Shown one piece after another: positions 5,977-62,416 of a stretch of 64,000 bases of DNA. The position numbers were made by a program, and so were the translations under genes. The DNA comes from Candidatus Heimdallarchaeum aukensis (lineage in GTDB: Archaea; Asgardarchaeota; Heimdallarchaeia; Heimdallarchaeales; Heimdallarchaeaceae): contig CP084166.1 in NCBI GenBank assembly GCA_021513695.1, forward strand, positions 704,001 through 768,000, written 5' to 3'. Positions within the stretch are counted from its first letter, which is position 1, and every line of letters begins with the position of its first letter. The notes below the pieces were generated by a model. It was not told the DNA's origin. It saw only the letters and a list, made by a program, of their open reading frames with translations, and made no database searches.

Positions 5977-6103
5977 AATTATATTTTATATTTAAATCTT
6001 AAAAAATTATTTATGTTGGATACCAAAAATCAAATCTAAATAAATGAAAGAAATCTATTCTGGTGGACAGAATAAAATTGATTTTATGAACTCAACAACT
6101 ATT

Positions 6104-7336
6104 TTACTGAAGAATTATTAGAGTCGAAAAAAGGACCAGAAAACTTGTAGAGATAAGATCTGCCATTGTGCTTAAAACAGGAATAACTATGTTATCAGGA
6201 TTAAAACCATATTTATATGTTAAAACAGCTGTCACAAAGGCTAATGAACTTATAATTAAGTAAGAAATCAAGTTTGTTAAAATTAAAACCAATAAAAGCG
6301 AAAAATAAAGATTTAGAGTTATGTCAAAAGGATAAATTGCAACTGCAAGAAGACTGTAAATTATAGACATCAGGAAACCTACAGTACCAAAAGCACTGAA
6401 AGGAAGAATAAGCTCTTTTGATCCAATAAAACTTATTTTTGGTTCTAGTGAACCTAGATGTAATTTTGTTGTTGTTGTATTAGCAATAATTGAATTTTGT
6501 GCTCCGACTGTACTAAGAACAGAAGGAAGAACAACTAAAACAATAGGGACTGCTTGCAATAAACTTTCAAATGAAACGAGAATACTTCCAGTTCCTGCAG
6601 CAATAATAGTAGTAACTAGAAGAGGAGGTAAACTTTGTTTTAATCCAAGCATTATGAAATCATTTTTTAAGCAATATACTTGCAAGAAAACAATAAAAGA
6701 TAATACTAAAATCACAAATGGGATACCAACAAATAGAGACAATTTTGTTTTCCATGGTCTATAAAAGATACATATTAGAAAGAATACAATTGTAATTATA
6801 ATATCATTGGCTGTGCTCATTATTGGATAGGTATAAACATCTGGATCACCATTATGCTTGAAAACAAAAAATGAAAAGGCAACTGTTAATGATAAAGAAA
6901 TAACAGTTCCAATAAAGAAAGTTGTAATGACAATAACTAAAATTGATAAAAATTCTATAGGGATTCCTATAATTAAACAAATAATAGAGGATATTATAGT
7001 CACAAAAACTGAATCATAAAAAGATAACATCATAATCAAAGATAAAAGTTCGTAAAACCTTTTTGAATTATCCTTAAAAGAAGGTTTAATTGTACCTAAA
7101 TGGAGAGATGTTCCAAGGTTTCCTGTTAATATTCCGCTTATGTCCCCTCTCACTGTTAAAAGCAATGGAAATATCAGAAAGATCCAAGGTAAATAAGGTT
7201 GGATTTTGTTTAATAATACAGCTGTTCTACCTGCAAAAATCCCTCCGATATTAAAGACAATTGCCCCAAACGCAGAAATAGCTAAAGCACTAAATTCAGT
7301 AAATAGAGATTGTTGTCGTGAAAGGCGTCGAGGCAT
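6104..7336 (-). CDS. Putative divalent-cation (Mg2+) transporter with tandem MgtE/SLC41-like membrane domains
   Basis: Two internal repeats each carry a P..(L/V)..GN.G..S..H/TT signature: RGDISGILTGNLGTSLHLGT and PSVLSTVGAQNSIIANTTTT. The product has about 10 TM segments. Confidence 0.45.
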   Translation of the reverse strand: MPRRLSRQQSLFTEFSALAISAFGAIVFNIGGIFAGRTAVLLNKIQPYLPWIFLIFPLLLTVRGDISGILTGNLGTSLHLGTIKPSFKDNSKRFYELLSLIMMLSFYDSVFVTIISSIICLIIGIPIEFLSILVIVITTFFIGTVISLSLTVAFSFFVFKHNGDPDVYTYPIMSTANDIIITIVFFLICIFYRPWKTKLSLFVGIPFVILVLSFIVFLQVYCLKNDFIMLGLKQSLPPLLVTTIIAAGTGSILVSFESLLQAVPIVLVVLPSVLSTVGAQNSIIANTTTTKLHLGSLEPKISFIGSKELILPFSAFGTVGFLMSIIYSLLAVAIYPFDITLNLYFSLLLVLILTNLISYLIISSLAFVTAVLTYKYGFNPDNIVIPVLSTMADLISTSFLVLFSTLIILQ

Positions 7337-38429: not shown

Positions 38430-39356
38430 TTATTTTAATTCTTTTAGAGCTTCTATTACTTTTTCAGCAACTTGAACGCTAGCTCTGTAATTTCCTTCAA
38501 GTGTTTGAGCACCTATATGAGGAGTCATAATTACATTGGGGTGTTTTAGGAGTTTGTTTTCTTCTTTAGGAGGTTCTTTTTCAAAGACATCAGTAGCATA
38601 TACAGCTAGTTTTCCTTTTTCTAAAGCTCGGTAAGCTGCTTCTTCGTCAACAACTCCTCCTCTTGCACAGTTAATGAGAACTACATTTGTTTTCATTTTC
38701 TCAAAAGCTTCATCTGAAATCATATGCCTTGTTTCATCAGTTAGTGGAAGATGAAGGCTGATGTAATCTGCTTTTTCAAAGACCTTGTCAATTGAACTTT
38801 GTAGGTCTATAACTCCGCTTTGTTTGATATACGCATCATATCCTATGGTTTTCATTCCGAGTGCTTTAGCTTTTACAGCTAAACTTGATCCTATTCTTCC
38901 TGTACCTATAATTCCTAATGTTTTTCCTTCTATTTCAACTGAAAATAATTCTTTTTTTAGTTTTTTAAATTCTGAAGGATTTTTTCTCAATCTTTCTGTT
39001 CCTGTTACTACTCGTCTGGTAGCTGCTAAAATCATAGTTAAAGCTAGTTCTGCAACTGAATTAGTTGTAGCATTTGGAGTGTTAATTACTTTTATTCCTC
39101 TTTCTCTTGCTGATTGTAAATCTATATTATCTAATCCTACACCAGCTCTACCTATAACTTTAAGATTTTTTGCTACTTCTAGTAGATGCCCTTTAACTTT
39201 AGTAGCAGACCTTACAATAATTGCGTCATATTCAGGTATAATGTGCTCTAATTCTTCTTTAGGTACATCCCAGGCTTTTTTTACTTCAAAACCTTCTTTT
39301 TCTAGCATTTCTACAGCTACTTCATTCAACTTATCAGCTATTAGTACTTTAAACAT
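38430..39356 (-). CDS. serA: D-3-phosphoglycerate dehydrogenase / D-isomer 2-hydroxyacid dehydrogenase (short form)
   Basis: It has an NAD Rossmann motif (GIIGTGRIGSSLA) and catalytic R/E/H positions typical of the 2-Hacid_dh family (about 308 aa). It is adjacent to an aminotransferase. Confidence 0.75.
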   Translation of the reverse strand: MFKVLIADKLNEVAVEMLEKEGFEVKKAWDVPKEELEHIIPEYDAIIVRSATKVKGHLLEVAKNLKVIGRAGVGLDNIDLQSARERGIKVINTPNATTNSVAELALTMILAATRRVVTGTERLRKNPSEFKKLKKELFSVEIEGKTLGIIGTGRIGSSLAVKAKALGMKTIGYDAYIKQSGVIDLQSSIDKVFEKADYISLHLPLTDETRHMISDEAFEKMKTNVVLINCARGGVVDEEAAYRALEKGKLAVYATDVFEKEPPKEENKLLKHPNVIMTPHIGAQTLEGNYRASVQVAEKVIEALKELK

Positions 39357-39366
39357 TTAATTCACC

Positions 39367-40446
39367 TCAATTAAGTTCCCAGATTTCATTAATATTGTTT
39401 AGCAATTCCTGAATTGTTTCTACTGTATGATCTCCCATATGTCCAATTCTGAAGGTTTTATCTTTAAGATTACCATAACCATTAGCTAGTTCCATTCCTC
39501 TTTCAGCTAATGCAGCATTTAGTGCTCCTACATCCTTATTTAATGTATTTTCTATTGTTGTGACAGTAACTGATTCATATCCTTCTTCTGCAAAGAGTTT
39601 AAACCCTTTTTCTAAAGCCCATTTTCTTGTTAACTCTGCCATTGCTTTATGTCTCTCATAACGACCTTTTGCTGTCTCTTTAAGCATTTTTCCAAGTTGA
39701 TAATCAAGAGCATAAAGTAATGAGATTGCTGGTGTAGAAGGAGTTTGTTTCTTCTTCAAATAGTACTTATGAACTTTTAGTAAATCAGTATAAGTTCCCC
39801 TATTCTTTACTTCTTCTGCTCGTTTAATAGCTTTTTCAGAATAAATCATAATGGTTAATCCTGGAGGTAGAGCAAAAGCTTTTTGGGTTGAAGCAAAAAC
39901 GAAATCAGTATGCATTTCGTCAGGTAGGATTAAATCTCCTCCTAAACTTGAAACAGTATCAACAACGAGTAATGTTTCAGGATACTTACTAATTACTTCA
40001 CCTATTGCTTTAAGATCACTTCTCACTCCTGTACTTGTCTCATTTTGACAAACAGTAACAACATCATACTCTTGTTCTTTAAGTTTTTCTTCAATCACTT
40101 CAGGTTTGATAGCTTTACCCCATTCTACTTCTAAAACATCAACATTATGCCCACAATCTTTTAGAGTATCAGCCATTCTTTTAGAAAAAGCTCCATTAAC
40201 ACAACTTAAAGCTGCTTTTCCTTCTCTAATCAGATTTCTACCCGTGATGTCCATACCAATTGTTCCTGAAGCAGCAAAGACAGCAATGTGTTGCTCAGTC
40301 TTAAAATATTCTCGAAGTTGGGTCAAAATGCTTGCATATAGAGCAGTAAAATCTTTATGACGATGACCAATCATTGGTTTTACTTGTGCTTGAAGCACAT
40401 CCTCACTTACTTCAGTAGGTCCTGGAATATACAATCTTCTGTGCAT
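39367..40446 (-). CDS. Class V aminotransferase (phosphoserine/serine-pyruvate/alanine-glyoxylate aminotransferase type)
   Basis: It has a PLP lysine motif (FVFASTQKAFALPPG) and the class-V fold length of 359 aa. It forms a serine-pathway pair with serA. Confidence 0.8.
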   Translation of the reverse strand: MHRRLYIPGPTEVSEDVLQAQVKPMIGHRHKDFTALYASILTQLREYFKTEQHIAVFAASGTIGMDITGRNLIREGKAALSCVNGAFSKRMADTLKDCGHNVDVLEVEWGKAIKPEVIEEKLKEQEYDVVTVCQNETSTGVRSDLKAIGEVISKYPETLLVVDTVSSLGGDLILPDEMHTDFVFASTQKAFALPPGLTIMIYSEKAIKRAEEVKNRGTYTDLLKVHKYYLKKKQTPSTPAISLLYALDYQLGKMLKETAKGRYERHKAMAELTRKWALEKGFKLFAEEGYESVTVTTIENTLNKDVGALNAALAERGMELANGYGNLKDKTFRIGHMGDHTVETIQELLNNINEIWELN

Positions 40447-40577: not shown

Positions 40578-42533
40578 CTAAAACTCAATAAATGGTAAGA
40601 AAATAGATACTTTCGTTCCAACATGATGAATGCTATCTATAAATATTTGTCCATCATGTAATTCTACAAGATTTTTTGTTATATACAAACCTAACCCTGT
40701 TCCTTCACTTTTTTCAGCTTCATCTGTTCTGAAAAAGGGCTTGAAAACATATGGGAGATCATGACTAGGGATACCAATTCCATGGTCTTGAATCTGAATG
40801 AGTAATCCTTTTCTGTTATCAGGATTATATTCACCTACATAATCTTTGATAACTGTAACTTCGATTTTAGAATTACTTAAAGAATATTTTATTGCATTAT
40901 CTAAAACATTGGATATTATCTGCTTAATTCTTTTTGGATCACCAAAATACTGAATATCTTTTGTTTCGAATTTCTTTTCTAACCTAATTTTTTTGCTTTT
41001 TAATTGTTCTTCAAAACTTCTTATTGTCGAATTAATGTTTCTAATAATATTAAACTTCTTTTTCTCTACTTTGAATCTATTATTTTCTATTTTAGAGACT
41101 ACAAGTAAATCTTCAATTAATGTTGTTAAAAGATCTGCACTTTCTTCCATTACTTCCAAGGTAGAGAAAATCTTTCTTTTAGGTAATCTTTCCCAGTATT
41201 TTTTAAGAAATTGAATACTCAAACTTATAGATGTAATGGGAGTTCTTAATTCATGACTGACAGAAGAGATAAAGTTTTTTCTTAGTTTATCCAAAGTAAG
41301 AAAGGGAGTAATATCTTGAAATTCTATTAGAGCACCTATAAAACTCCCAGAAGAGGTGATATTTACTCCTGAGACCTGAATAAAGAAATTTTCAGACAAC
41401 TCAAATGTATCACAGACTTTTTCTTTTTCTATTATTAATTCTTTAATAAAGGAGAATAAAGGGTCGTCTTTAAACTTTTCAGAAAAGATATTTAATGATA
41501 ATAAAGGTTCTTTATCTTCGGGATAGAGAACACGATAGAATTCTTCAAATTTCTTATTAAATAGACTAAAATTCCCTTCATCATCAATCAACAACAAACC
41601 AGGTGAAACTGTTTCAAAAATTGCTTCAAGTTTTAGTTTCTCTTCTAAAAGTTCTTCATTTTTTCGCTCTACTATCATTGATAATTCAGAGCTTGTTTCT
41701 TTTAGCTCTTTTTCTCTTTCTACATGTTTAGTAATATCTGTTGCAACCCCTAAAGCTGCTATCTCACCACTTGGTAATTTAATAGGAATCTTTCTTACTT
41801 CAATTGTTCTTTTTTCTCCAAAGGCATCAGTAAAAGAGCTTGTAGTTTTTATCCTACTTTTAGTATCTATTACTTTCCTATCATACTTTAAGAAATAATC
41901 AGTTTCACTCTTTACAGGTTGTATATCATGCTGAATAGAACCCTCAATCTCGCTTATTGGTAAATTAAAACGGTCTGCTAAAGCTTTGTTAGCTAATAGA
42001 AATCTCCCTTCTTCATTTTTTACAAAAATCATTTGTGGAACTTGATCTATTACTTCTCTTAAGATATTTTTATTGAATTCGAGTTCCATAATTTCATCCA
42101 ATTTTGATGAAAAAGAAGAAGCTACAGCAACATGACAATCATTGGACGAGTTAAAAATCACTTTTAGTTTTACAGGTAGTCTTTTTCCTTCTTTTGCAAG
42201 TAAAAAAGTTACAAAAGTAAAAAAACTTTTTTTTGAATCTGATAACTTTAAATAATATTCCAAATTTTTTTCTTTGTCTTTCTCTTCGAAATACTCATTT
42301 ATTTTTTTTTCAAGTATGATAGACTTCTTAACTCCTATAAGATCTTCAGCTCTTTTGTTTATATAAAGAATGGATAGATTGTTATTAAAAACAAAAATTG
42401 CTTCTTCTAAACTATCAAAACAAGATAGAATATCTTCATATTTCAGCTTTAATCCATCTACTCTAGCAGATTCGTTTTCTGTATTTTTATTTTTTTTATT
42501 TGAAGATACATCATTGGAAAAAAGATTACTCAA
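40578..42533 (-). CDS. Multi-PAS sensor histidine kinase (HisKA plus HATPase_c)
   Basis: It has a classical H-box (SVSHELRTPITSI), an N-box (NVLDNAIKYS) and G-boxes (DHGIGIP; GTGLGLYITKNLVELHDG), with three PAS-like segments upstream. Confidence 0.85.
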   Translation of the reverse strand: MSNLFSNDVSSNKKNKNTENESARVDGLKLKYEDILSCFDSLEEAIFVFNNNLSILYINKRAEDLIGVKKSIILEKKINEYFEEKDKEKNLEYYLKLSDSKKSFFTFVTFLLAKEGKRLPVKLKVIFNSSNDCHVAVASSFSSKLDEIMELEFNKNILREVIDQVPQMIFVKNEEGRFLLANKALADRFNLPISEIEGSIQHDIQPVKSETDYFLKYDRKVIDTKSRIKTTSSFTDAFGEKRTIEVRKIPIKLPSGEIAALGVATDITKHVEREKELKETSSELSMIVERKNEELLEEKLKLEAIFETVSPGLLLIDDEGNFSLFNKKFEEFYRVLYPEDKEPLLSLNIFSEKFKDDPLFSFIKELIIEKEKVCDTFELSENFFIQVSGVNITSSGSFIGALIEFQDITPFLTLDKLRKNFISSVSHELRTPITSISLSIQFLKKYWERLPKRKIFSTLEVMEESADLLTTLIEDLLVVSKIENNRFKVEKKKFNIIRNINSTIRSFEEQLKSKKIRLEKKFETKDIQYFGDPKRIKQIISNVLDNAIKYSLSNSKIEVTVIKDYVGEYNPDNRKGLLIQIQDHGIGIPSHDLPYVFKPFFRTDEAEKSEGTGLGLYITKNLVELHDGQIFIDSIHHVGTKVSIFLPFIEF

Positions 42534-42535
42534 TA

Positions 42536-43441
42536 TTAATCACCTTGAATAGGTAGGACTGTAAGTATTTCTTCCCAAGCTTTCTTTATATCCCATTTTT
42601 CTTCATTTTTAACCTTATTTGAATAAGGAGCTAGTATTTCTTCCAATCTTTTAGTAATTATATAATCAATCCTTGGAGCAATAACTACAAGCATAAATGG
42701 TATTTGCTGAGATAAGCTTTCAAAATCCTCATACGCATCAATGTATATATAACAAGCCATACCTATATTTTCTAAAAACAAAGGCACTCCCTGGGGATTT
42801 GTTACTTTTAATTCTCCATATACAGAGATAATAGTTTGAAAGATTTGAACGCCTAAACTATCTAATTCAATTTGTTGTTCTATTTTCTTGGGAAAATAAT
42901 CTACTGGCTGAGGGCCCAGCACATCATGCCATTTAATTAAAAGCAAAAAAACAGAATCTTTTGAATAACTATATATACTATCATGAGCCATTAAATTCTG
43001 ACTTAACTCTAAAGTTATTTTCTTCTTTAGTTCTTCTCTAATTTGATAATTTAATTTTCTTTTAGCTAACTTTCCTTCAACTATTGCTATCAAATCTTCT
43101 TCTTTGAAGGGTTTAATTATATAATCATCTATTCCCAAAGATTTACCATATCTTACTGACTCTGGGTCACTTTTAGCAGTAAGAAAAACAAAAGGAATGT
43201 CAAAAAATCTTTCATCTCTTGAGATTTTTTCATATAGAGAATAACCATCCATTCCTGGCATCATTATATCACAAAGAATAAGATCAGGGGGTCGAGTTAG
43301 ATTTTCTAACAAAGTTAATGCTTCATCTGCACTCTGGGCTAAAACAGGAAAGTAGTCATACATAGATAAAATACTGTCTAGTAAATACAAGATTTGCTTA
43401 TTATCATCAATAATTAAAATCGTTCCTTTCAAATTATCCAA
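42536..43441 (-). CDS. Response regulator: REC domain plus uncharacterized ~170-aa C-terminal domain
   Basis: The REC domain shows ILIIDDNKQ, the phospho-acceptor Asp in LILCDIMMPGMDG and the K in FLTAKSD. The C-terminal domain has no family I recognize. Its stop abuts the HK start 2 nt away. Confidence 0.75.
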   Translation of the reverse strand: MDNLKGTILIIDDNKQILYLLDSILSMYDYFPVLAQSADEALTLLENLTRPPDLILCDIMMPGMDGYSLYEKISRDERFFDIPFVFLTAKSDPESVRYGKSLGIDDYIIKPFKEEDLIAIVEGKLAKRKLNYQIREELKKKITLELSQNLMAHDSIYSYSKDSVFLLLIKWHDVLGPQPVDYFPKKIEQQIELDSLGVQIFQTIISVYGELKVTNPQGVPLFLENIGMACYIYIDAYEDFESLSQQIPFMLVVIAPRIDYIITKRLEEILAPYSNKVKNEEKWDIKKAWEEILTVLPIQGD

Positions 43442-43530: not shown

Positions 43531-44934
43531 CTAAATGTTCAGTACTACCAGTAGAATTGAATAGGCTGTACTTATTATCCCCATTATTATTATAAGAGGA
43601 AAGATTTTTTTAAAATAGTCTTTAAAAGTAAATTCTATTCCTTCTCTTTTCAAAATATCAAGAGACATCAGAATTGTTACACTTCCTAAGGGAGTGAGAG
43701 CTCCTCCTACATTATCAGCCAAGATTAAACTAACCCAAGTCCCTTTGAAAATAGGAACAGAAACGGTGTTAGAAATAGTGATGAAAATGTAAGAGAAAAT
43801 TAGAGCTGCACTTGTGTTATTTAGAAAACCAGCTAGTGGTATACCAATGATTATAAAGAATACAACAACTAAAATTTGTGCTACTGTAGGTGAAAAATTC
43901 AAATCAAAGAATAACAAAATTAAATTAGATAAAGGAATAAGAGCCCCTGAAGCAGCGAATATCCCCATAAGAGTGAAAAGCATTACAAAAAATGTAATCA
44001 TTTCCCATTCTACACCATGTTCTACATATTTTTTTAAAGTTGAATTAAAAATAAAAACTCCAATGACAGCTACAATGAAAGCTATTGTTCCTACATCTAA
44101 ACCTAATACTGAAGATAATAGAAATCCTCCAAATAGAAGCAATAGTAAAGCAAAAGATTTCCAAACTTTAATCTTACTTTCTACACTAGACCATGGATTA
44201 ATTCTAGCGATTTGACTTTTTTTATCTCTATCTACTTTTTTGTTTATTTCCTTTTTGAAGATATAGTAAAAGTATCCATAGGCTACAAAGAATAAAATAA
44301 ACGATATTGGAAACATTAAAGCAGTGAAACCAATAAAAGTAATGGTACCTGGATAGAGACTAAAGAATATAATGTTGGGTATAGATGAAACAGGAGTAGG
44401 CATTCCTCCGATAATTGTATTAATTCCAACGAAAAGAACAAAAGGTAATGGATTTACATCCAGTTGTTTGCAAATTACAATAGTTAAAGATCCTAGCAGT
44501 ATAATAGCTGAAAGATTATCAAAAAACATACTGATGAAGAATGTTAGTCCTCCAATTGACATGAAGAGCATTTTGGGATTTCCTTTTGTCAGTTTAATGA
44601 TGTAAAGAGATATGAAATCGAAAAACCCTGAATCCTTTATTAGTTGAACAATAATACTTACTGAGAATATAATCAAGATTGCTTCTACATTTACTAAATC
44701 CGAAATCGCTTCAATAAAATGAGGATGTTCATTTTCAAAATTATAACCAAGATTCACTTCAAGAAGATGTTCCCAATCCATTAAAAAGAAGAAAACTACT
44801 ATTGACAAAATTGTACCTAATGCAGTTACTTTCAAGGAATCAAACTTTTCGTTCATTAATCCAGCAATTGTTCCTAGAACAATTATTGTAATCAATATTG
44901 AGCCTACTATTGTTAGTGTTACCACGTTTATCAC
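43531..44934 (-). CDS. Anion permease of the ArsB/NhaD (CitMHS/DASS-like) superfamily, paralog A; GTG start
   Basis: It has 12-14 TM segments and hairpin-like motifs (VGINTIIGGMPTPVSSIPN; NVGGALTPLGSVTILM). Confidence 0.5.
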   Translation of the reverse strand: MINVVTLTIVGSILITIIVLGTIAGLMNEKFDSLKVTALGTILSIVVFFFLMDWEHLLEVNLGYNFENEHPHFIEAISDLVNVEAILIIFSVSIIVQLIKDSGFFDFISLYIIKLTKGNPKMLFMSIGGLTFFISMFFDNLSAIILLGSLTIVICKQLDVNPLPFVLFVGINTIIGGMPTPVSSIPNIIFFSLYPGTITFIGFTALMFPISFILFFVAYGYFYYIFKKEINKKVDRDKKSQIARINPWSSVESKIKVWKSFALLLLLFGGFLLSSVLGLDVGTIAFIVAVIGVFIFNSTLKKYVEHGVEWEMITFFVMLFTLMGIFAASGALIPLSNLILLFFDLNFSPTVAQILVVVFFIIIGIPLAGFLNNTSAALIFSYIFITISNTVSVPIFKGTWVSLILADNVGGALTPLGSVTILMSLDILKREGIEFTFKDYFKKIFPLIIIMGIISTAYSILLVVLNI

Positions 44935-45164: not shown

Positions 45165-46553
45165 CTAAGCTCCAAGAAGGATTAGAACTATTGAATAACC
45201 AATACTAAGTAACGCAAATGTTAGAGTTAGTGGAATTGTTTTTTTGACATAATCCATGAAAGTAATTTTATATCCTTCTCTATTCAATATCTCCAGAGCC
45301 ATCAAAATTGTTATACTTCCTAAAGGCGTTAGAGCTCCTCCAATATTACCTCCAAGTACAAAAGCTATCCATGTTCCTTTTCCAATAGTTGTTGAAACAG
45401 AAGCAACCATGGTTGTAAAAATATATGAGAATATTAAAGCTGCAGAAGAACCGTTAAGAAATCCTGTAATAGGTAAACCAATTAATCCTATTATTAGTGC
45501 AACGAGTATTTGAGCCGTTGTGGGTGAAATATCCAGATCGAAAATAGAGATAAATAGATTCGCAATAGGTTGCAAAGCTCCAGAGCCAGCGAGGACACCC
45601 ATTAAAACAAACAAGGCTACAAAAAATACAATCATCTCCCACTCTATTCCAGAGTGAATAAACTTTTTTAACTTTTTATTAAATAAGAATAATCCAAAAA
45701 CTGCAACTATTAGAGCTATTGTTGCTACATCTAAACCTATAACTGAAGAAAGGAGAAATCCTGAAAATAGAACAATTAACAGCCCTATTGATTTATATAC
45801 TTGACTTCTTTCTTCAATTCCAGACCAAGGATTAATTCTAGAGATTTGTTTTTGTTTTTCTTCGGGTATTTTAATGAATATATCTTTTTTGAATATAATA
45901 AAGAAATAGAGAGAAGACAAGATGAAGAACAGTAAAGCTATTGGAAACATTAATGCTGTGAACTTAATAAAACTCATATCACCCTCATACAAGCTGTAAA
46001 AGATGATATTTGGAAGTGAAGAAACAGGTGTAGGTAGTCCCCCTATTATAGTATTAATTCCAACAAATAAAACAAATGGAATAGGATTTAAATCCAATTG
46101 TTCACAGATAACTACAGTTAGAGATCCTAACAAAATTATTGCTGAAAGATTGTCGAAAAACATGCTAATGAAAAAAGTCAATCCTCCTAAAGCGATAATA
46201 AGCTTTTTAGGATCTCCTTTTGTTAATTTTACAATAGAAAGCGAGACAAAATCGAAGAATCCTGCTTCTTTGGTCAAAGAAACGATCACACTTACTGAAA
46301 AAATGATCAAAATTGCTTCTACATTTATCATCTCAGCAATAGCTTCTAAATAACCCTCAGGAATAAATTCATGGCTAGTGTTTTCTAGTAACAATTTATG
46401 CCAATCTGTAAAAAAGAAAAAAATCACCATAACTACAGAAGCTCCAGTTACTGTTATTTTTGTAGTGTCAACACCTTCAACCATTAAAGCTATTATTGTT
46501 GCAATTACAGTTACAGATATTAATATTATTCCTATTGTTTCCACTACAGCCAT
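45165..46553 (-). CDS. Anion permease of the ArsB/NhaD (CitMHS/DASS-like) superfamily, paralog B
   Basis: It is collinear with paralog A and about 55-60% identical by eye (VGINTIIGGLPTPVSSLPN; NIGGALTPLGSITILM). Confidence 0.5.
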   Translation of the reverse strand: MAVVETIGIILISVTVIATIIALMVEGVDTTKITVTGASVVMVIFFFFTDWHKLLLENTSHEFIPEGYLEAIAEMINVEAILIIFSVSVIVSLTKEAGFFDFVSLSIVKLTKGDPKKLIIALGGLTFFISMFFDNLSAIILLGSLTVVICEQLDLNPIPFVLFVGINTIIGGLPTPVSSLPNIIFYSLYEGDMSFIKFTALMFPIALLFFILSSLYFFIIFKKDIFIKIPEEKQKQISRINPWSGIEERSQVYKSIGLLIVLFSGFLLSSVIGLDVATIALIVAVFGLFLFNKKLKKFIHSGIEWEMIVFFVALFVLMGVLAGSGALQPIANLFISIFDLDISPTTAQILVALIIGLIGLPITGFLNGSSAALIFSYIFTTMVASVSTTIGKGTWIAFVLGGNIGGALTPLGSITILMALEILNREGYKITFMDYVKKTIPLTLTFALLSIGYSIVLILLGA

Positions 46554-46574
46554 AAAATATTCCTTCTTTACAAC

Positions 46575-48485
46575 TTATTCAAAGTCATCAGTTTTTACTT
46601 CTTCTTCAAGTTCTTCTTCAATTTCTTCTGATTCTTCAAGCTTTTCTTTTTCAGTTGATTTTTTTGTTTCTGGCTTTTCTTTTTCTTCTTCCTTTAATGG
46701 AGTTTCTTCAGTTAATTCAGAAATTATTTCTTCTTTGATTAATGTCTTTGGGTCTTTTAGTTCTCTCTTCAGTTCATATTTTATTTCTTCTTTTATCTCT
46801 TCCCTTATCTCTTCTTTAATCTCTTCTTTTAATAAAGATAATGCATCTTTAGAAAAATCTTTCATTATCTCTTTCTTCAGTTCTTTTTTTGGTGCTTCTT
46901 TAATCTCTTTCTTTATTTCTTCTTTAATCTCTGCTTTAATCTCTGCTTTAATCTCTTCTTTAATTTCCTCTTTTTCATCTAAGGGTTTTTCTTCAATTTT
47001 ATCCATAATTAACTCCTCTTCAATTTCTTTTTTCTCTTCTTTCTCTTCCTTCTCTTCTTTCTTTTCTCTTTCTTCCTTCTCTTTTTTCTCTTCTTTCTCT
47101 TCTTTCTTTTCTTTCTCTTCCTTCTCTTCTTTCTTTTCTCTTTCTTCCTTCTCTTTTTTCTCTTCTTTCTCTTCTTTCTTTTCTTTCTCTTCCTTCTCTT
47201 CCTTCTTTTCTTTCTTTATTTCACTTTTTGTTGGCTTTTCTTTTACTTTTTTCTCTTCTTTAGTCTTTTCTTTAGTTTCTTTTTCTTCTATTACAGATGC
47301 TTCTTCAGGCTCTTCTATACCAAAAAGTTCTCTCTTTACTTCTTCTTTGATTTCCTCTCTAACAGTTTCTCCAATATCTATTTTCTTCGAAATAGTTTCT
47401 TCTTTAGGAACTGTATCACTAGAAACTGCTTTCTCTTCTTTTTTCTCTTTCTTTTTTATATCTTCAGTAATGATTAATAGAGGAACAGTAACATCAGGGT
47501 CGCTTAACAGATCTATAAACAGTCCATATAAATTGGCTAATTTAGATGGAAGATAAATAATTAATAATCCAAGATCCTTACCAAAACTAATCATTTGGTT
47601 TTTTAACTCTTCATGGTCAGATAAAGAAAGAATTTCGAAATCTACAAATCGTTGTGAATCTTCAAAAACAACTTGATTCGCGCGCTCGAATTTATTCATT
47701 TCTTCTTTTTGTTTTGAAAGTAATTCTAAAAACTCTTCATCATTTAGATCTTGATACAAATATCTATTTAACAAGAACATGCAGTGTATGTTTGCATTTT
47801 TTATACTAAATTGAATAGATTTTTCAATTAAATACGATAGTCTACTTATACTTCCTGTTACTATACCGATGTGTTTCCACAAATACTCAGTATTTAATTC
47901 TTGACTCTCAATTATTAATACGGGAACATCGTTTTCTTCTAAAAGATAATTGAAAACATCACCCATAACTTCTATTTTTGCTTCTTCTTTATCTTCTTCT
48001 TGCTTTACTTTAATACTTTTTTTCATACCAATAAAGGAAGAAGGAACAACAATAAGATCATAGGTTGAAGCGTTAATTATTGCAGAAATAATATTTTTTA
48101 ATCCATCAAGATCTTCAACAACATGACCTTTAATATTAAAAAGTTTGCTAGATAGATGCTCATATGCAAAAGACAATGCTTCATCATACTGTTCTTTATT
48201 TGTATCTTCTTTAGAATAAAAACAGATAACATCTACCGTTGCTTGGAAGAACAATCTGAGTTCTTCAGCAAGTAAAACAACAGTACGAGATTTTTTAGAA
48301 CCATCTATAAGAACTAATACACTTTTTATTGGTTTAGCTGAAGGATCAACTGAAGGTAGAAGGTTTGCAAACTTCTTTTTCTGCTCCTCAATTGTTTCCT
48401 TTTGCACTTCTATTTTATCCTGATGATTGGACATACTAATTCCTCTCTCTATGCTTTTTAATTTTTCTTTTTGATTTTTAAACAT
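46575..48485 (-). CDS. Universal stress protein (Usp) domain protein with a ~300-aa E/K-rich (ER/K single-alpha-helix-like) repetitive C-terminal tail
   Basis: A Usp-like fold is visible (KSVLVLIDGSKKSRTVVLLAEEL...YDLIVVPSS), and there may be a second Usp-like half. Residues about 340-636 are almost entirely E/K/I with exact repeats (KKEEKEEKEKKEEKEEKKEKEERE x2.5; EEIKAEIKAEIKEEIKKEIKE). The likely real start is ATG 48437 (MSNHQ...), preceded by agagagga. Confidence 0.6.
   Translation of the reverse strand: MFKNQKEKLKSIERGISMSNHQDKIEVQKETIEEQKKKFANLLPSVDPSAKPIKSVLVLIDGSKKSRTVVLLAEELRLFFQATVDVICFYSKEDTNKEQYDEALSFAYEHLSSKLFNIKGHVVEDLDGLKNIISAIINASTYDLIVVPSSFIGMKKSIKVKQEEDKEEAKIEVMGDVFNYLLEENDVPVLIIESQELNTEYLWKHIGIVTGSISRLSYLIEKSIQFSIKNANIHCMFLLNRYLYQDLNDEEFLELLSKQKEEMNKFERANQVVFEDSQRFVDFEILSLSDHEELKNQMISFGKDLGLLIIYLPSKLANLYGLFIDLLSDPDVTVPLLIITEDIKKKEKKEEKAVSSDTVPKEETISKKIDIGETVREEIKEEVKRELFGIEEPEEASVIEEKETKEKTKEEKKVKEKPTKSEIKKEKKEEKEEKEKKEEKEEKKEKEEREKKEEKEEKEKKEEKEEKKEKEEREKKEEKEEKEEKKEIEEELIMDKIEEKPLDEKEEIKEEIKAEIKAEIKEEIKKEIKEAPKKELKKEIMKDFSKDALSLLKEEIKEEIREEIKEEIKYELKRELKDPKTLIKEEIISELTEETPLKEEEKEKPETKKSTEKEKLEESEEIEEELEEEVKTDDFE
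47028..47207. repeat. 72-nt tandem coding repeat (~2.5 copies) within the E/K-rich tail; shorter 12-nt periodicities lie nearby (46780..46990)
   Basis: Reading the plus strand, 47064-47135 and 47136-47207 are identical except for 1 nt. Each encodes the 24-aa unit KKEEKEEKEKKEEKEEKKEKEERE. Confidence 0.6.
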
Positions 48486-49881: not shown

Positions 49882-50655
49882 ATGAAGAAAAGATACTTAG
49901 AAGTCAAAGCAAGGTTTATTGCTGAAAAAATTTCACAAGCAAAGCACTTTATTGCTTTAACAGGTGCAGGGATTAGTACAGAGTCAGGTATTCCAGATTA
50001 TAGAGGAGATAACGGAATATACAAAAGTAAAGCACAAGGTAAAGAAGTGAAAGTAAAGCCTTTAGAAGAATTTGAGCCGAACCCTGCACACTACGCTTTA
50101 GTTAGATTACAAGATTTAGGCTTGTTAAAATTCATCATATCTCAAAATATAGATGGATTACATATTAAATCAGGAATAAAAGAATCACTAATTGCTGAAA
50201 TACACGGAAATTATTCTATTCTCAAATGTATTGAATGTGACTCAAGATTCACAAAAAAAGAAATGAATTGGGACAACGAGAAATATGGTTGGGGAGCAAG
50301 AAGTGCAGAGCCTAGCCCTGAACAACCAAACTGTCAAAATTGTGGTGGAAGATTAATTTCTTCAATTGTTAACTTTGGAGAACCAATGCCAGAAAAAGAG
50401 ATGAAATTAGCTAAAGAACATTCAAAAAAATGTGACTTAATGCTTGTTATTGGAACTAGCTTGAGAGTTGCACCAGCTAACACTCTTCCGAGTATCGCGG
50501 AGAAAAATGGTGCAGAGGTTTTTATCATTAACCTTAAACCTACAGGATTGGATAACATCTTAAAAAATGAAAGAATAAAAGCAAAAGCAGGAGAAATCTT
50601 GCCTTTAATAGTTAATTATATAGAGGAGAATATTGAAAAAGACAGTAAAACTTAG
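49882..50655 (+). CDS. cobB: NAD-dependent protein deacylase, Sir2/CobB family (sirtuin)
   Basis: It has GAGISTESGIPDYRG, QNIDGLH and Zn-ribbon cysteines (CIECDS...CQNCGG). Confidence 0.85.
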   Translation: MKKRYLEVKARFIAEKISQAKHFIALTGAGISTESGIPDYRGDNGIYKSKAQGKEVKVKPLEEFEPNPAHYALVRLQDLGLLKFIISQNIDGLHIKSGIKESLIAEIHGNYSILKCIECDSRFTKKEMNWDNEKYGWGARSAEPSPEQPNCQNCGGRLISSIVNFGEPMPEKEMKLAKEHSKKCDLMLVIGTSLRVAPANTLPSIAEKNGAEVFIINLKPTGLDNILKNERIKAKAGEILPLIVNYIEENIEKDSKT

Positions 50656-52325
50656 TTATCCTGATAAACTATTTCAACATCGATTAATGAAGAATAGTTA
50701 ATCTTACAACCCACAAAAGAACAAATTAAAATTAACCCATTTTTGAGTTCAGGAAAATTGTTTCCAAGTTCATTTAAAGTGATTTTTCTTCTTTGTTTAA
50801 TGAATTCTCTTAGATTTTCATATTTTATTTGTGTAATTATTCCAAATTCTGGAACAAAAACAAGGTTATTTTTTTCTATTTGTTCTTTGATTTGTTCGTA
50901 ATCCATGATTTTTTTGATATTATCAACGGAATAAAGACCTAGTTCATCAGCTAATTGATTAATCTCCACTACTTCATTATTGGAGGAGATTAATTCACAT
51001 ATTCCGATAAATTTTGTTATTATTGTTTCAATCCTTTCGCTTATATCAGAATATTTAGATTCAAGTAGATTATGTAACGTTAAACTAGGAATTTTGTTCT
51101 TCTTATAATAAACAATATCTACTGTTTCCAGAATATCATTAAAATGAGACTCTAGTTTTTTATCAACGAGATAGATTATAGGAAGATCAGTTTTCGCTAT
51201 TTCCAGCATTTTTGTTCTTTTTTTATGGATGTATTTTTCTGTATAGAAGCCTACAATTTCAAGGTAAACTTTCTTTTCTCCTCTTTTAAGCGTAAAATCT
51301 GGAACAAATATCTTATCAGCTAAAAAAATAGTTTCTGGTTCTGCTGTAGCTGTCCATCCTTTATTATTTTGCCATTGAGATAAGAAAATTCTTTCAATTT
51401 CTGAGTCTACTTCAAGTTGTTTTTCTTGTTCTCCTTCAGCTACAAATGTGTCTGATTTTCCAAAAGGAAGAGGAGGAGGATTAAAAGAATCTAATTGAAA
51501 AATTAAATTTCTTTTTCTTGGTTTTACTACGCTTTCTAGCTTAAATTGAATATTTTCCAAAAAGCAATATTTTATTATGAACAGAGCTACTGAAGTAATA
51601 TTTTTCCCCCATGTTGAAGCTCCTTCAAAAAATTCTGTAGGCGGTTCAATTTTCACTGAATAAGGAAAGTCAGGGTCATCTGTTTTCAATATTTCAGACC
51701 AAACATAATTAGCTTTAGAAAGAAAGATTATTCTTTTGGAAAATCCTCCAGGTAAGGAGGAAAGATTTATTGAAACATTTAAAGAGAAATTGAGTAGAGT
51801 TTCAATTAGGTCATAATTATATTCTTCTACAAGTTTTTTCGAATCAACATCATTCTCTATAACTTTAGTCAATATTTTCTCATGCTCTTTGTCTGCATAA
51901 AGTAAATTTTCTATATCTTGTTCAGAGATATTTTTTTCTTCCTTTATTTTTTGTAAGAAACTTGTTCTTTCTTCTTTACTTACAAAACCTTCTTGGTAGT
52001 GTTCACTTACAAAATCAAATATAAATTCTCTAAATTCTTCTATAGTTTCTATATTTAGACTTTCAAACTTCACATTAGGTTGCTGAAAGGTAAAATATCT
52101 TCTTGATGAAATTAAAATTGCTTCAGAAATCTTTTCTGATGGAAAAATCTCATTTAGAACCTTAAAATTTATTTCTCTTCTTTTCTTACCAATATTTGTT
52201 TCTAAAAAATTGATTATAACTGCTATTTTATTTTCATCTTTATATGTGAGAAAATAAGGAAAGATTTGCATTTTCTTGTTTATTTTTCTGGTTTCATATT
52301 CAAGTTTTGATAAAGCTAACCTCAC
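50652..52325 (-). CDS. Bax1-like (DUF790-type) nuclease, partner of XPB; PD-(D/E)xK-like motif
   Basis: The 557-aa protein lies immediately downstream of the XPB-like helicase. Its C-terminal half has FVPDF...LEIVGFYTEKY, a restriction-endonuclease-like D...E.K pattern. Confidence 0.5.
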   Translation of the reverse strand: MRLALSKLEYETRKINKKMQIFPYFLTYKDENKIAVIINFLETNIGKKRREINFKVLNEIFPSEKISEAILISSRRYFTFQQPNVKFESLNIETIEEFREFIFDFVSEHYQEGFVSKEERTSFLQKIKEEKNISEQDIENLLYADKEHEKILTKVIENDVDSKKLVEEYNYDLIETLLNFSLNVSINLSSLPGGFSKRIIFLSKANYVWSEILKTDDPDFPYSVKIEPPTEFFEGASTWGKNITSVALFIIKYCFLENIQFKLESVVKPRKRNLIFQLDSFNPPPLPFGKSDTFVAEGEQEKQLEVDSEIERIFLSQWQNNKGWTATAEPETIFLADKIFVPDFTLKRGEKKVYLEIVGFYTEKYIHKKRTKMLEIAKTDLPIIYLVDKKLESHFNDILETVDIVYYKKNKIPSLTLHNLLESKYSDISERIETIITKFIGICELISSNNEVVEINQLADELGLYSVDNIKKIMDYEQIKEQIEKNNLVFVPEFGIITQIKYENLREFIKQRRKITLNELGNNFPELKNGLILICSFVGCKINYSSLIDVEIVYQDN

Positions 52326-59056: not shown

Positions 59057-59908
59057 TTAAGAAGCTAGCATCACTCTTCTTGATTCAGGTCTGTATATAA
59101 CAACTCCAATCTCATGCATGAAACTTACTGCTCTTTTTACTTCAACAGCTGAAAGGTTCAATATTGCTGTTAATTCGTCTAGAGTAAGACTATTTGATTT
59201 TGAGTCCTGTAAAGCTAAAAAAACTCTTCCATGGTCGGTAGAATTTAATAGTATCCTTAAAAGTGAAGATTGCTCCTCTCTTTTTGTTTCTTGGAGCTCT
59301 TTCTCTTGTGCAATGCTTTTTTCTGTCTCTTCTTTTAATTGCTCTTTTTCTTGTTTAATTTTTTCTACTTCCTCTGTCTTTTCTTTTAATTGTCTTTCTA
59401 AATCTATTAATTTAGAAGATAAGTCGGTATTCTCAACGTTAAGTTGCTCCGTTTCTAATTTTAAGTTGTTAAATTCTCTCATCTTGACTTCAAGATCTTT
59501 TTCAATCATCACTTGTTTCTCTTTTAGTTGAGAAATTAAAGCTTCTTTTTCATCTAAAAGAGTGGTTAACCTTTTAATTTCTTTTACTTTTTTTTCTATT
59601 ACTTTGTTAAGATCTTCTAGATATGAGTTAGATTTAGACATTTCATCTTTAAGTTCTTCAATTTTTTTATCTTGTAAATTAGATCTGGAAATAATTAATT
59701 CTGAAATATCAATTATTTTGTTATTGAATGACTTTTCAGTTTCATTGATGTATTGTTTTAAATCTTCTTTGAGATCTGTTATATTTTTTGAGCTATCTTT
59801 TTTTTGAGCATCCAGTTGAATTTCAATACTCGATTTTAGTTCTGATAGTGTGTCGGAGATTTTAATTACCGATTCTAATATTTGCTCTATATCTTTACCT
59901 TTAACCAT
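59057..59908 (-). CDS. Long coiled-coil protein with C-terminal winged helix
   Basis: About 200 aa of heptad-rich E/K/L sequence are followed by a wHTH-like region (LDELTAILNLSAVEVKRAVSFMHEIGVVIY). Confidence 0.45.
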   Translation of the reverse strand: MVKGKDIEQILESVIKISDTLSELKSSIEIQLDAQKKDSSKNITDLKEDLKQYINETEKSFNNKIIDISELIISRSNLQDKKIEELKDEMSKSNSYLEDLNKVIEKKVKEIKRLTTLLDEKEALISQLKEKQVMIEKDLEVKMREFNNLKLETEQLNVENTDLSSKLIDLERQLKEKTEEVEKIKQEKEQLKEETEKSIAQEKELQETKREEQSSLLRILLNSTDHGRVFLALQDSKSNSLTLDELTAILNLSAVEVKRAVSFMHEIGVVIYRPESRRVMLAS

Positions 59909-60468
59909 ACTAATATAGAAAGTAAAAAAATATTAAAAGTTTTTTAAGGAATAATTGCAATTTTTTGTTCTATTACCTTAAAATTTTAGGAACTATAGAA
60001 CTTGAAAAAGGTAATTTAGATAAAGCAGAAAAACAACCAGAAAAAACGCTTGAATTAAATGAATATTTCACTCTTGAATGGGAAAATTTAGCTTTTGTCA
60101 GGACACAATTAGGAAATAAAAAGGAGCTAAGGAAGCAGAAAAGAAACTAAAAGAAATTTTGTCATCTTTCTTGGCTTGGAGAAGTAAAACAGGCAACAAT
60201 TATTTAAATTTGTTAGTTACTGTCCAATTCTCACTATATTACAACCCTTTTTGTAATGAGTAGAAAAATCTTCAATAAGTACATAGCTAGTTTTAATAGA
60301 AATTAAAAACGAGAAAACTCTATCTTTATGCAATAAACTATTAGGAATTTTTCTATTCTTTTTTTTATGATATTAAAAAAATAGATTATATGATTACTTG
60401 AGAAACAAAATAGTAGAAGTATGATGTTTTCGAAAAACACTAATACATAAAGAAATTGTAGGTTTATA

Positions 60469-61894: not shown

Positions 61895-62416
61895 TTATTT
61901 AACAATACCTTTTTCTAGAAGGGTTTCAAAATCCTCTTTATTCTTCTTTTTCTCTTCTAACTCTTCTACAAATCTTTTTCCGACTTTCGAGGGTTTCTTA
62001 TCTTCTCTTACATTTTTTATGAAAACAAAAACCGAAGCTAGTTGAAATAGAATAGTTACTCCTACAACTATCCATTTTAATAAATCTCTATATTGATCAC
62101 TCATTTTGGTAAAGAATAGGATGTAAATCGCAATTGGAAGATAAAAAACTGAAACTACTAAAATAGGAACTCCAAAAATTGAATAAACAAGTTCATTCCA
62201 AATGTAAGCAAATGTTGATCCTTTTCCTGTTGAAGTTACGAAATTAATTAGTTTATAAGTAAGAACCATAAAGGAAATTATTCCTATAACTGCTACTAAA
62301 ACAATTCTTATTGTGTTTCCACCTACTATAAACAGTGTGAATGAAACAACAAGAGCAAGTATCAAAAGAATTAACTTATCTCTTTTTCTTTTTTTAGCAG
62401 AATTATAACTTATCAT
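61895..62416 (-). CDS. Hypothetical membrane protein with a K/E-rich C-terminal tail
   Basis: It has 4 hydrophobic helices and a charged C-terminus. Confidence 0.4.
   Translation of the reverse strand: MISYNSAKKRKRDKLILLILALVVSFTLFIVGGNTIRIVLVAVIGIISFMVLTYKLINFVTSTGKGSTFAYIWNELVYSIFGVPILVVSVFYLPIAIYILFFTKMSDQYRDLLKWIVVGVTILFQLASVFVFIKNVREDKKPSKVGKRFVEELEEKKKNKEDFETLLEKGIVK

Follow-up and report, generated by a model that had tools for sequence, protein, structure and literature searches.

The 64,000-nucleotide stretch of Candidatus Heimdallarchaeum aukensis DNA analyzed here (contig CP084166.1; hereafter the window, numbered from its first nucleotide) carries on its minus strand, at positions 46575 to 48485, an open reading frame (ORF) of 636 codons plus stop, which specifies a tandem Usp-like core followed by a 291-residue charged C-terminal extension (the tail). 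We read the product as a member of a family of tandem Usp-like permease partners, one paralog of which carries a modular docking arm whose linker was recently lengthened in this species; the chance that this reading holds as a whole is, in our judgment, about even. The first ~345 residues are of ordinary composition, and no other ORF of the 64-kb window, the G+C content of which is ~30%, matches the charge density of this one. Orthologs retain the whole reading frame. An exact-sequence look-up of the 636-residue protein in public assemblies returned no record.

The N-terminal half of the protein is, as modeled, a tandem Usp-like fold composed of two domains:

Positions 47904 to 48329, minus strand: Usp-like alpha/beta domain 1, residues 53 to 194 (Pfam Usp, AlphaFold2, and Foldseek)

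Positions 47460 to 47879, minus strand: Usp-like alpha/beta domain 2, residues 203 to 342 (AlphaFold2 and Foldseek alignments)

The full-length AlphaFold2 (AF2) model, based on a 13-sequence alignment, displayed two beta-alpha-beta domains with predicted local distance difference test (pLDDT) scores of 70 to 88 (76 to 88 for domain 2), and both halves showed the order of secondary structure elements expected for the five-strand, four-helix Usp-type fold in tandem. The top Foldseek matches in the PDB were the tandem Usps Rv2623, TTHA0350, E. coli UspE/YdaA, and A. fulgidus AF1760 (3cis, 3ab8, 5cb0, and 3loq among the entries), which, like the protein of the window, have two Usp-type domains (E values of 1e-6 to 7e-5; probability of 1.00). 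The Usp-like C-terminal regulatory domains of KCC/NKCC carriers matched equally well, the E values for both groups together ranging from 7e-7 to 7e-5 over alignments of 255 to 350 columns that spanned both domains. MJ0577 (1mjh) was matched with an E value of 1.2e-3 and a probability of 1.00. At the sequence level, the full 636-residue protein had no Pfam match at an E value of ≤0.01, domain 2 alone had none either, and the Usp core had none in NCBIfam. Domain 1 alone (residues 52 to 194) matched Pfam Usp (PF00582) with 22.4 bits (E value of 1.9e-4; model positions 2 to 140 of 141), and a weak precomputed PF00582 match was on record for ortholog P0002. The first-pass annotation of the window had allowed for one or two Usp folds: two are present by fold, and the assignment is marginal by sequence, with 22.4 bits for domain 1 and nothing for domain 2.

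Exhaustive comparison by phmmer with 1.84 billion representatives recovered 8 relatives, and 15 were recovered from 5.8 billion proteins by word-seeded searching. Among 185,579 species genomes scanned, 33 loci were found; the titles of 30 read Heimdallarchaeota (one Heimdallarchaeum), and those of the other three name a Promethearchaeati archaeon in one case and an uncultured archaeon in two. Within the reach of these sequence searches, the family is confined to Heimdallarchaeota. The nearest relative belongs to Candidatus Heimdallarchaeum endolithica PR6 (core identity of 97%; 109 differences in 975 nucleotides; proportion of synonymous differences [pS] of 0.49), a divergence in line with the 88% average nucleotide identity reported for the two circularized Heimdallarchaeum genomes (PMC8813620). 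The family comprises a tailed clade, with proteins of 540 to 603 residues and tails of 215 to 270 residues in 19 other species (tail E+K content of 51 to 63%), and a tail-less clade, with proteins of 333 to 358 residues that often end in a short basic run. Both forms often occur in one metagenome-assembled genome, and this small, delimited family, with its single permease type and its natural tailed/tail-less pair, offers a ready test of the contribution of the arm. Public records name the relatives only "hypothetical protein" or "universal stress protein"; under our reading, these hypothetical proteins would be annotated as tandem Usp-like permease partners. Full-text literature searches, none of which was aimed directly at the family, returned no description of it. 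One public protein, P0001, is 93% identical and ends with ...CLLYTSPSPRDLSTSRMPSSA, which we take to be translated sequencing-adaptor read-through at a contig end and not a genuine C terminus.

Gene order, together with the analogy to known transporter regulators considered below, suggests that the Usp-like protein, presumably cytoplasmic, is a dedicated partner of the ArsB/CitMHS permease encoded downstream. The genes that follow it in the window are the following:

Positions 45165 to 46553, minus strand: permease 1, 462 residues, ArsB/CitMHS/IT superfamily (Pfam CitMHS, E value of 1.3e-42)

Positions 43531 to 44934, minus strand: permease 2, 467 residues, a divergent lineage-specific duplicate 58 to 60% identical to permease 1

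Positions 42536 to 43441, minus strand: response regulator, downstream of the permeases, with a receiver domain at residues 8 to 121

Positions 40578 to 42533, minus strand: PAS histidine kinase, downstream and in the same orientation

Permease 1 begins 21 nucleotides past the stop codon of the Usp gene. A permease 1-like gene was found directly downstream, on the same strand, in 30 of the 30 genome loci that include downstream DNA, in both clades, and four further metagenome loci displayed the same arrangement. The second permease, the response regulator, and the PAS kinase follow in the same order in PR6; at locus L003, the response regulator is upstream and divergent. The co-oriented block noted at first pass, with two anion permeases and a two-component system, was confirmed: both permeases are of the ArsB/CitMHS type, and the two-component system consists of a response regulator and a PAS histidine kinase. 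The permeases matched superfamily-level models only. NCBIfam provided no substrate-specific assignment for them, the ArsB, MamN, DASS, and NhaD models scoring far below their cut-offs, and the ~180 residues that follow the receiver domain of the response regulator had no Pfam match.

Other genes recur at the loci of the tailed pair. Genes for a class-V aminotransferase and a short PGDH-like 2-hydroxyacid dehydrogenase were observed with this pair in ~18 Heimdallarchaeota loci (L009 to L037). They are located upstream and divergent elsewhere and, in the window, at positions 38430 to 40446 (minus strand), downstream of the two-component system. These linked genes may hint at the substrate class of the permease, e.g., glycerate, hydroxypyruvate, or serine-related acids. 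In most species, a protein of ~169 residues with ~4 transmembrane helices and no Pfam match is encoded upstream of the gene for the tailed Usp protein and divergently from it (positions 5838 to 6347 of locus L001 and at least 18 other ortholog loci) and could be a third member of the Usp-permease system. The window itself contains only a distant four-transmembrane homolog of 173 residues, 13 kb away (positions 61895 to 62416, minus strand).

The tail (residues 346 to 636) contains 37% E, 27% K, and 9% I and has a net charge of -33. Its glycines number 2 of 291 residues (0.7%), and its eight prolines (residues 360, 393, 418, 501, 532, 579, 596, and 605) leave residues 419 to 500 as the longest proline-free stretch (82 residues). 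The E, K, and I content of ~90% over 300 residues claimed at first pass was found in residues 420 to 513 only, where E+K amounts to 81 to 85%; over the 291-residue tail, the three residues account for 72%. Five parts follow one another in the tail:

Positions 47319 to 47384, minus strand: T1, short conserved helix KIDIGETVREEIKEEVKRELFG, residues 368 to 389, from the alignment of 20 tailed orthologs (family consensus I.ID...KE.IKEEVK.DILG)

Positions 46983 to 47318, minus strand: hypervariable E/K linker, residues 390 to 501 (112 residues)

Positions 46701 to 46982, minus strand: T3, conserved module of ~94 residues, residues 502 to 595, from the alignment of 20 species

Positions 46599 to 46700, minus strand: T4, acidic segment, residues 596 to 629 (AF2 pLDDT of <50)

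Positions 46578 to 46598, minus strand: T5, C-terminal VKTDDFE (family motif V.[ST]R.[DE]FE-COOH)

T3 is made of two copies of a unit consisting of a ~25-residue helix with Ile or Val at every fourth position, the tripeptide (E/A/D)PK, and a ~14-residue helix, and many of its columns are at least 90% conserved among the 20 species. The FE-COOH end was found in 19 of the 20 tailed loci with a readable C terminus, L024 being the exception, and in the protein of the window. Conservation was estimated as the identity of the window protein to 18 orthologs outside its genus, in comparison to a null obtained by composition shuffling. Identity exceeded the null for T3 (0.55 versus 0.19), T1 (0.49 versus 0.12), T5 (0.49 versus 0.10), and the Usp core (0.45 versus 0.07). 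T4 was conserved in composition only (0.50 versus 0.45), and the linker had an identity of 0.34 versus 0.27, with only 37% of the window residues being alignable. In comparison to PR6, the ratio of nonsynonymous to synonymous proportions of differences (pN/pS) was 0.036 for the Usp core, 0.065 for T3 (pS of 0.73), 0.19 for the linker, and 0.24 for T4 and T5. Since conservation exceeds the null in T1, T3, and T5, selection falls on these modules, the E/K linker being the least constrained. These sequence comparisons show that the conserved tail modules are under purifying selection and indicate that the linker is a composition-constrained spacer, the near-exact repeat and the E/K run that had attracted attention being the least constrained part of the tail.

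Searches with a T3 profile retrieved nothing significant from PDB sequences (best E value of 0.11, for a designed helical repeat) or from Pfam (best E value of 0.023). Nothing was obtained at an E value of ≤1e-3 from 5.8 billion proteins, a search in which family members were lost too, presumably through composition correction. Three candidate identities for the tail or its end were rejected. A dehydrin- or LEA-like hydrophilin was dismissed on the basis of the glycine content of 0.7%, the resemblance of IMDKIEEKP to a K-segment being found only in this genus. The HbYX motif of proteasome ligands requires a hydrophobic residue, Tyr, and any residue at the C terminus, and the CAP-Gly-binding EEY/F-COOH motif requires an aromatic last residue; in [DE]-F-E, the residue before Phe is acidic and the aromatic residue is penultimate, not terminal.

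The repeat that gave rise to the first-pass annotation is located in the linker, within a longer homopurine tract:

Positions 47037 to 47211, minus strand: 72-nucleotide tandem repeat, 2.43 copies, encoding residues 425 to 483 (Tandem Repeats Finder and self-comparison)

Positions 47024 to 47217, minus strand: uninterrupted homopurine tract (coding strand) of 194 nucleotides, containing the 72-nucleotide repeat

Both the ORF and the near-identical repeat are real. The copies differ at 1 of 103 compared positions, by a synonymous AAG/AAA substitution, and the encoded 24-residue unit is KKEEKEEKEKKEEKEEKKEKEERE. This unit and the period-4 EEIK pattern were both recovered as described. The array is the sole strong tandem repeat of the window. 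It covers 59 of the 291 tail residues, about the middle fifth of the tail, which as a whole is thus not "built from" the 72-nucleotide repeat. It is absent from the PR6 ortholog, which has a 39-residue gap at this place and an E-rich composition. As the copies differ by a single synonymous base while the sister-species orthologs differ at a pS of 0.49, the sequences support a recent expansion of the repeat, in agreement with what had been proposed. The linker comprises 112 residues here, 70 in PR6, and 31 to 71 in the 18 other orthologs, and the linkers of other species include V, I, L, T, D, P, and G. Of the length-variable rod of the first-pass annotation, the variable length was therefore retained, as a property of the linker, and the rod of ~300 residues was not. 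The next-longest homopurine tract of the window has 29 nucleotides, and that of the PR6 ortholog has 77. Homopurine/homopyrimidine tracts readily undergo slippage and form triplexes, a possible reason for the hypervariability of the linker; the slippage-prone tract, with its nested 9-, 45-, and 72-nucleotide periodicities, would account for the fast change in linker length. Heimdallarchaeum genomes contain hundreds of tandem repeats (212 and 262, CRISPR [clustered regularly interspaced short palindromic repeat] arrays and intragenic repeats pooled; PMC8813620).

In the full-length AF2 model, residues 420 to 493 formed a single uninterrupted helix of 74 residues (pLDDT of 85 to 95). Helices of lower confidence were predicted at residues 373 to 388, 505 to 529, 546 to 576, and 580 to 593, and residues 330 to 372, 389 to 419, and 594 to 636 were nonhelical and of low confidence. 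Modeling of residues 464 to 636 alone yielded almost only helix, with pLDDT values of up to 96 at residues 553 to 573 and a predicted template modeling score (pTM) of 0.27. The combination of long helices with this pTM indicates an extended structure with no compact fold.

Several known systems are relevant to the proposed role of the protein. The N-terminal beta1 motif of the family resembles the consensus V-L-V-L-I-D-G-S-x-x-S of the Usps. Unlike the tandem Usps, the family is subthreshold by sequence and has, in place of the ATP motif G-2x-G-9x-G[ST], the sequence PSSFIG and a 20-residue charged insert. It also adds a conserved N-terminal helix and a charged tail of 215 to 290 residues to what are, in the matched tandem Usps of the PDB, chains of 235 to 311 residues. 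The tandem Usp Rv2623 acts through the transporter Rv1747 (PMC5549992). TeaD from Halomonas elongata is likewise a free-standing Usp-fold protein encoded beside, and co-oriented with, a secondary transporter, the ectoine TRAP transporter TeaABC, which it restrains posttranscriptionally according to genetic evidence, deletion of teaD raising uptake with no change in the mRNA level (PMC2964678). A TeaD-like gene linkage was observed in the family (adjacent and on the same strand in 30 of 30 loci). TeaD is a single-domain, ATP-binding, bacterial protein associated with a TRAP transporter, whereas the members of the family are tandem proteins with no ATP motif, an ArsB/CitMHS (IT) carrier, and a long tail. 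The C-terminal domain of the SLC12 carriers (KCC1 to KCC4, NKCC1, NCC, and the prokaryotic CCC domain 3g40) was among the best Foldseek matches (6m22, with an E value of 7e-7, 7tth, 6vwa, and 3g40). In the KCCs, this domain is USP/TeaD-like, binds ATP/ADP, and regulates the carrier, with disordered regulatory termini on either side (PMC8280820). The SLC12 domain is part of the same polypeptide as an APC-fold carrier, whereas the family protein is separate and encoded beside an unrelated IT-superfamily carrier; the resemblance is that of the generic tandem-Usp fold and provides no evidence of specific ancestry. Usp-fold regulators of transporters, free or fused, are thus known, with poorly understood mechanisms, and E/K linkers are likewise of a known kind. 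What is new is a family restricted to one lineage, the invariable association of its members with a permease of the IT superfamily, and a T3/T5 module with no Pfam or PDB match.

In the mechanism that we consider most likely, the core would act as a separable regulatory subunit, gating or tuning the permease depending on a bound ligand or the stress state. T3 to T5 would form the functional end of the arm, probably a protein-docking one. With lower confidence, the tail would be a tethered docking arm in which T3 and the acidic-aromatic C terminus contact a third protein, the permease, or the core of the Usp-like protein itself. The reach of the arm would be set by the linker: residues 419 to 500, if helical, would span ~12 nm (82 residues at 0.15 nm), 1.6 to 3.6 times the reach in orthologs. 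The homopurine tract of the linker grew recently by tandem duplication of the 72-nucleotide unit, which yielded a KEKE-type, well-mixed polyampholyte of 82 proline-free residues that is predicted to form one long helix. SAH-like (single alpha-helix-like) behavior of this stretch is plausible but is not the selected feature, and the linker, which changed its length between sister species, is a candidate archaeal single-helix spacer.

A number of results weigh against this reading. The link between the Usp protein and the permease rests on synteny and analogy, and no partner was identified for T3 or T5. When the permeases of tailed and tail-less forms were compared, the 15 columns that discriminate between them were mostly hydrophobic transmembrane positions, and a complementary charged loop was not obvious. 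The 22.4 bits of domain 1 are below the Pfam Usp gathering score of 24, making the assignment a subthreshold one, and a profile of the family N-domain retrieved no Usp from PDB sequences. A regular-expression search found the ATP motif in 0 of 20 family sequences; the equivalent site is occupied by an invariant PSSFIG (PSSFIGMKK), followed by the 20-residue charged insert and MGD. Nucleotide binding by the family is still allowed despite this loss, since TTHA0350 binds ATP with no recognizable motif (PMC12159084). In the tail, the T3 helices of the full-length AF2 model had only moderate pLDDT values of 45 to 67, and where a charged helix stands alone, a high pLDDT may reflect conditional folding and not a stable helix (PMC10622901).

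This last point leads to the main rival, the first of the alternatives taken here in decreasing order of probability. According to it, the tail is a disordered polyampholyte, of the KEKE type or acting as an "entropic bristle," in which T1, T3, and T5 fold only upon binding of a partner. We regard this as a genuine though tentative possibility. The charges of the tail are well mixed (charged fraction of 0.69; kappa of 0.07), as are those of residues 419 to 500 (kappa of 0.03), the pTM is low, and ~40% of the tail has a pLDDT of <50. A confident isolated AF2 helix can correspond to an SAH or to partner-dependent folding, and AF2 often assigns confident helices to conditionally folding disordered regions (PMC10622901). 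Pulling in the other direction, pLDDT values of 85 to 96 on the helices at residues 420 to 470 and 553 to 573 are typical of a high intrinsic helix propensity, and the composition (E, K, and I, with next to no Gly) favors helix. KEKE motifs, reportedly described by Realini et al. in 1994, are said to include those of triadin, junctin, Uch37, and PA28. Residues 394 to 417, 419 to 500, 502 to 531, and 606 to 634 conform to the KEKE definition of more than 12 residues with >60% K plus E/D, no W, Y, F, or P, and no more than four like charges in a row (PMC3427183). In triadin, an accessory protein, the KEKE peptide regulates an ion channel: it is disordered by circular dichroism, yet it binds and activates RyR1 (PMC3427183). 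The 82 residues of the linker segment far exceed the typical KEKE length and, unlike the triadin example, are predicted to be helical; KEKE is a compositional descriptor and not a homologous family.

An extended version of the docking-arm reading, which we consider unlikely, would have the tail act as a hitherto undescribed, Heimdallarchaeia-specific interaction module that is held off the core by a genuine archaeal SAH, tuned by slippage, and that couples the Usp-like sensor and an anion/metalloid permease to a second partner, e.g., another membrane complex or machinery of the cytoskeleton or of proteolysis. In the module, two helix-Pro-helix repeats, along which the Ile/Val stripe of period 4 spirals, would be followed by an acidic run and by [DE]FE-COOH as a docking peptide. 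If true, this would amount to a eukaryote-style "tethered short linear motif" mode of regulation in the archaeal lineage closest to eukaryotes.

The T3 helices could alternatively be an oligomerization device, a bundle or an unusual coiled coil that joins two or four Usp-like subunits over a permease dimer, with the linker providing slack. The regular hydrophobic stripe and the very high conservation of T3 are in keeping with this idea, as is the common dimerization of tandem Usps as tandem units (PMC12159084), and the Waggawagga program treats hydrophobic i, i+4, i+8 stripes as potential coiled-coil seams (PMC5812594). The geometry of the stripe makes it improbable. The hydrophobic Fourier peak of T3 (residues 502 to 578) was at 4.0 residues and not at 3.5 to 3.67, and the hydrophobic moment was 0.11 to 0.12 at 100 degrees and ~0.5 at 90 degrees; the repeat part of the linker contains no hydrophobic residues. 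The stripe is one residue wide and spirals by ~40 degrees per turn on a 100-degree helix, and the AF2 monomer showed no hairpin packing. A canonical heptad coiled coil, with its period of ~3.5, and an ordinary amphipathic helix were rejected for T3 on the same ground.

We also considered that the 2.43 repeat copies could be an assembly artefact, by collapse or expansion. The array (175 nucleotides) and the homopurine tract (194 nucleotides) both exceed the length of the 150-nucleotide Illumina reads, and the Candidatus H. aukensis genome was built from PE150 (paired-end) reads, assembled with k of ≤99 and scaffolded with Nanopore reads (PMC8813620). The reading frame is nonetheless intact, and the one-base difference among the copies speaks against a simple assembly duplication, so that we judge this explanation quite improbable. 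A metagenome scan for close relatives returned one contig of 2.4 kb that ends inside the Usp domain and provided no second copy of the repeat region.

The central proposal of the first-pass annotation was that the whole tail of ~300 residues is a stable ER/K SAH rod, a rigid spacer of variable length. SAH domains of this type are found in myosin-6, myosin-10, caldesmon, INCENP, and the KER region of CAF-1 and have been designed as AEEEKKK repeats. Residues 419 to 500 have much in common with them, being ~90% charged, free of proline over 82 residues, devoid of a hydrophobic seam, predicted to form a continuous helix, and located at a spacer position. An E/K-rich composition should not by itself be taken as an SAH, and the order of the charges differs. 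The alternating blocks of four E and four K that had been reported were absent from the tail, the E and K runs of which are 1 to 2 residues long; charges recur with a period of 3 in the linker (EEK-like) and of 4 in the EEIK modules, as opposed to 7 in the EEEEKKK model SAH. The i-to-i+4 E/K signature fared only partly better. Pairs of opposite charge at i+4 were mildly enriched in the repeat part relative to composition-matched shuffles (36 of 55 pairs; z of +2.2), an effect offset by like charges at i+3 (43 of 56 pairs; z of -4.2). In the EEIK blocks, almost all i+4 pairs were of like charge (z of -3.4 and -5.1), the reverse of the SAH signature.

SAH propensity was scored with our own reimplementation of Waggawagga, following its published logic (PMC5812594) with unit weights. 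Opposite pairs at i+3 and i+4 and charge-network bonuses add to this score, a hydrophobic i, i+4, i+8 network is penalized, and EEEEKKK is set to 1, with cut-offs of 0.25 to 0.35. The experimentally proven SAH AEEEKKK (PMC5347031) scored 0.83, (EEK)n scored 0.25, and (EEIK)n scored 0.00. Residues ~427 to 482 were the sole stretch of the tail to pass, and only marginally so, with a mean of 0.38 and values of >0.25 at all window sizes. Shuffled linkers scored 0.35 ± 0.05, equal to the observed value, indicating that the score reflects composition and that the charge order is not tuned for an SAH. The rest of the tail (residues 346 to 418 and 502 to 636) scored 0.02 to 0.12, and the PR6 linker scored 0.19. 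The EEIK parts, which scored ~0, carry an i, i+4, i+8 Ile/Val stripe, a feature that Waggawagga counts against an SAH as a potential coiled-coil seam (PMC5812594). Only residues 419 to 500 formed a stretch of at least 40 E/K/R-rich residues with no seam or helix breaker (charged fraction of 0.90; no Pro or Gly), and this behavior did not extend across the tail. In comparison to established SAH domains, the linker has a charge period of 3 instead of ~7, mostly like charges at i+3, almost no Arg, no conservation among orthologs, and a score of 0.38, indistinguishable from that of shuffles, instead of the 0.83 to 1.0 of proven patterns.

The rod is thus left with the E+K richness of residues 420 to 513, AF2 helix over most of residues 420 to 594, the passing score of residues ~427 to 482, and the mild i+4 enrichment in its favor. 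It is contradicted by the 8 prolines and 2 glycines that break the tail, by the predicted nonhelical state of residues 346 to 372, 389 to 419, and 595 to 636 (pLDDT of <50), by the scores outside the linker and their equality to shuffles inside it, by the like charges and hydrophobic stripe of the EEIK modules, and by the short ortholog linkers, which contain V, I, L, T, D, P, and G and do not conserve the charge pattern. We therefore consider a rod of ~300 residues very unlikely. SAH behavior of ~55 to 80 residues only, a fifth to a quarter of the tail at best, is plausible from the modeling.

Finally, a functionless tail generated by low-complexity slippage in an AT-rich genome, suggested by the G+C content of ~30%, the 194-nucleotide tract with its nested periods, the conservation of the linker in composition only, and the abundance of tandem repeats in Heimdallarchaeum (PMC8813620), is a reasonable origin at most for the extra length of the linker and is highly improbable for the tail, being refuted for T1, T3, and T5 by their conservation among species with Usp cores that are 42 to 52% identical, by the pN/pS of T3 at a pS of 0.73, and by the retention of a tail of 215 to 270 residues in 19 other species.

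The 5' end of the ORF involves two further features:

Positions 48435 to 48485, minus strand: codons 1 to 17, doubtful as coding

Positions 48432 to 48434, minus strand: ATG (M18), with GAGAGAGGA just 5' of it

Comparison of codons 1 to 17 with PR6 revealed no synonymous and two nonsynonymous differences, at a whole-gene pS of 0.49, and all orthologs outside the genus begin at a Met equivalent to M18. Judging from these alignments, the real start is probably the ATG at position 48434 (M18), and the annotated N terminus (codons 1 to 17) is probably a conserved 5' leader.

On the opposite strand, an ORF of 392 codons at positions 46378 to 47556 (plus strand) is antisense to the E/K tail and would encode a Ser/Phe-rich product; it was rejected as a gene and considered an antisense shadow of the low-complexity region. 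Elsewhere in the window, a Sir2-family gene (positions 49882 to 50655, plus strand) and a DUF790 gene (positions 50652 to 52325, minus strand) are convergent, their 3' ends overlapping by 4 nucleotides. The only other highly charged segment of the window is a 60%-charged, coiled-coil-looking stretch (ERQLKEKTEEVEKIKQEKEQLKEETEK...) in an ORF of 291 codons at positions 59060 to 59932 (minus strand).

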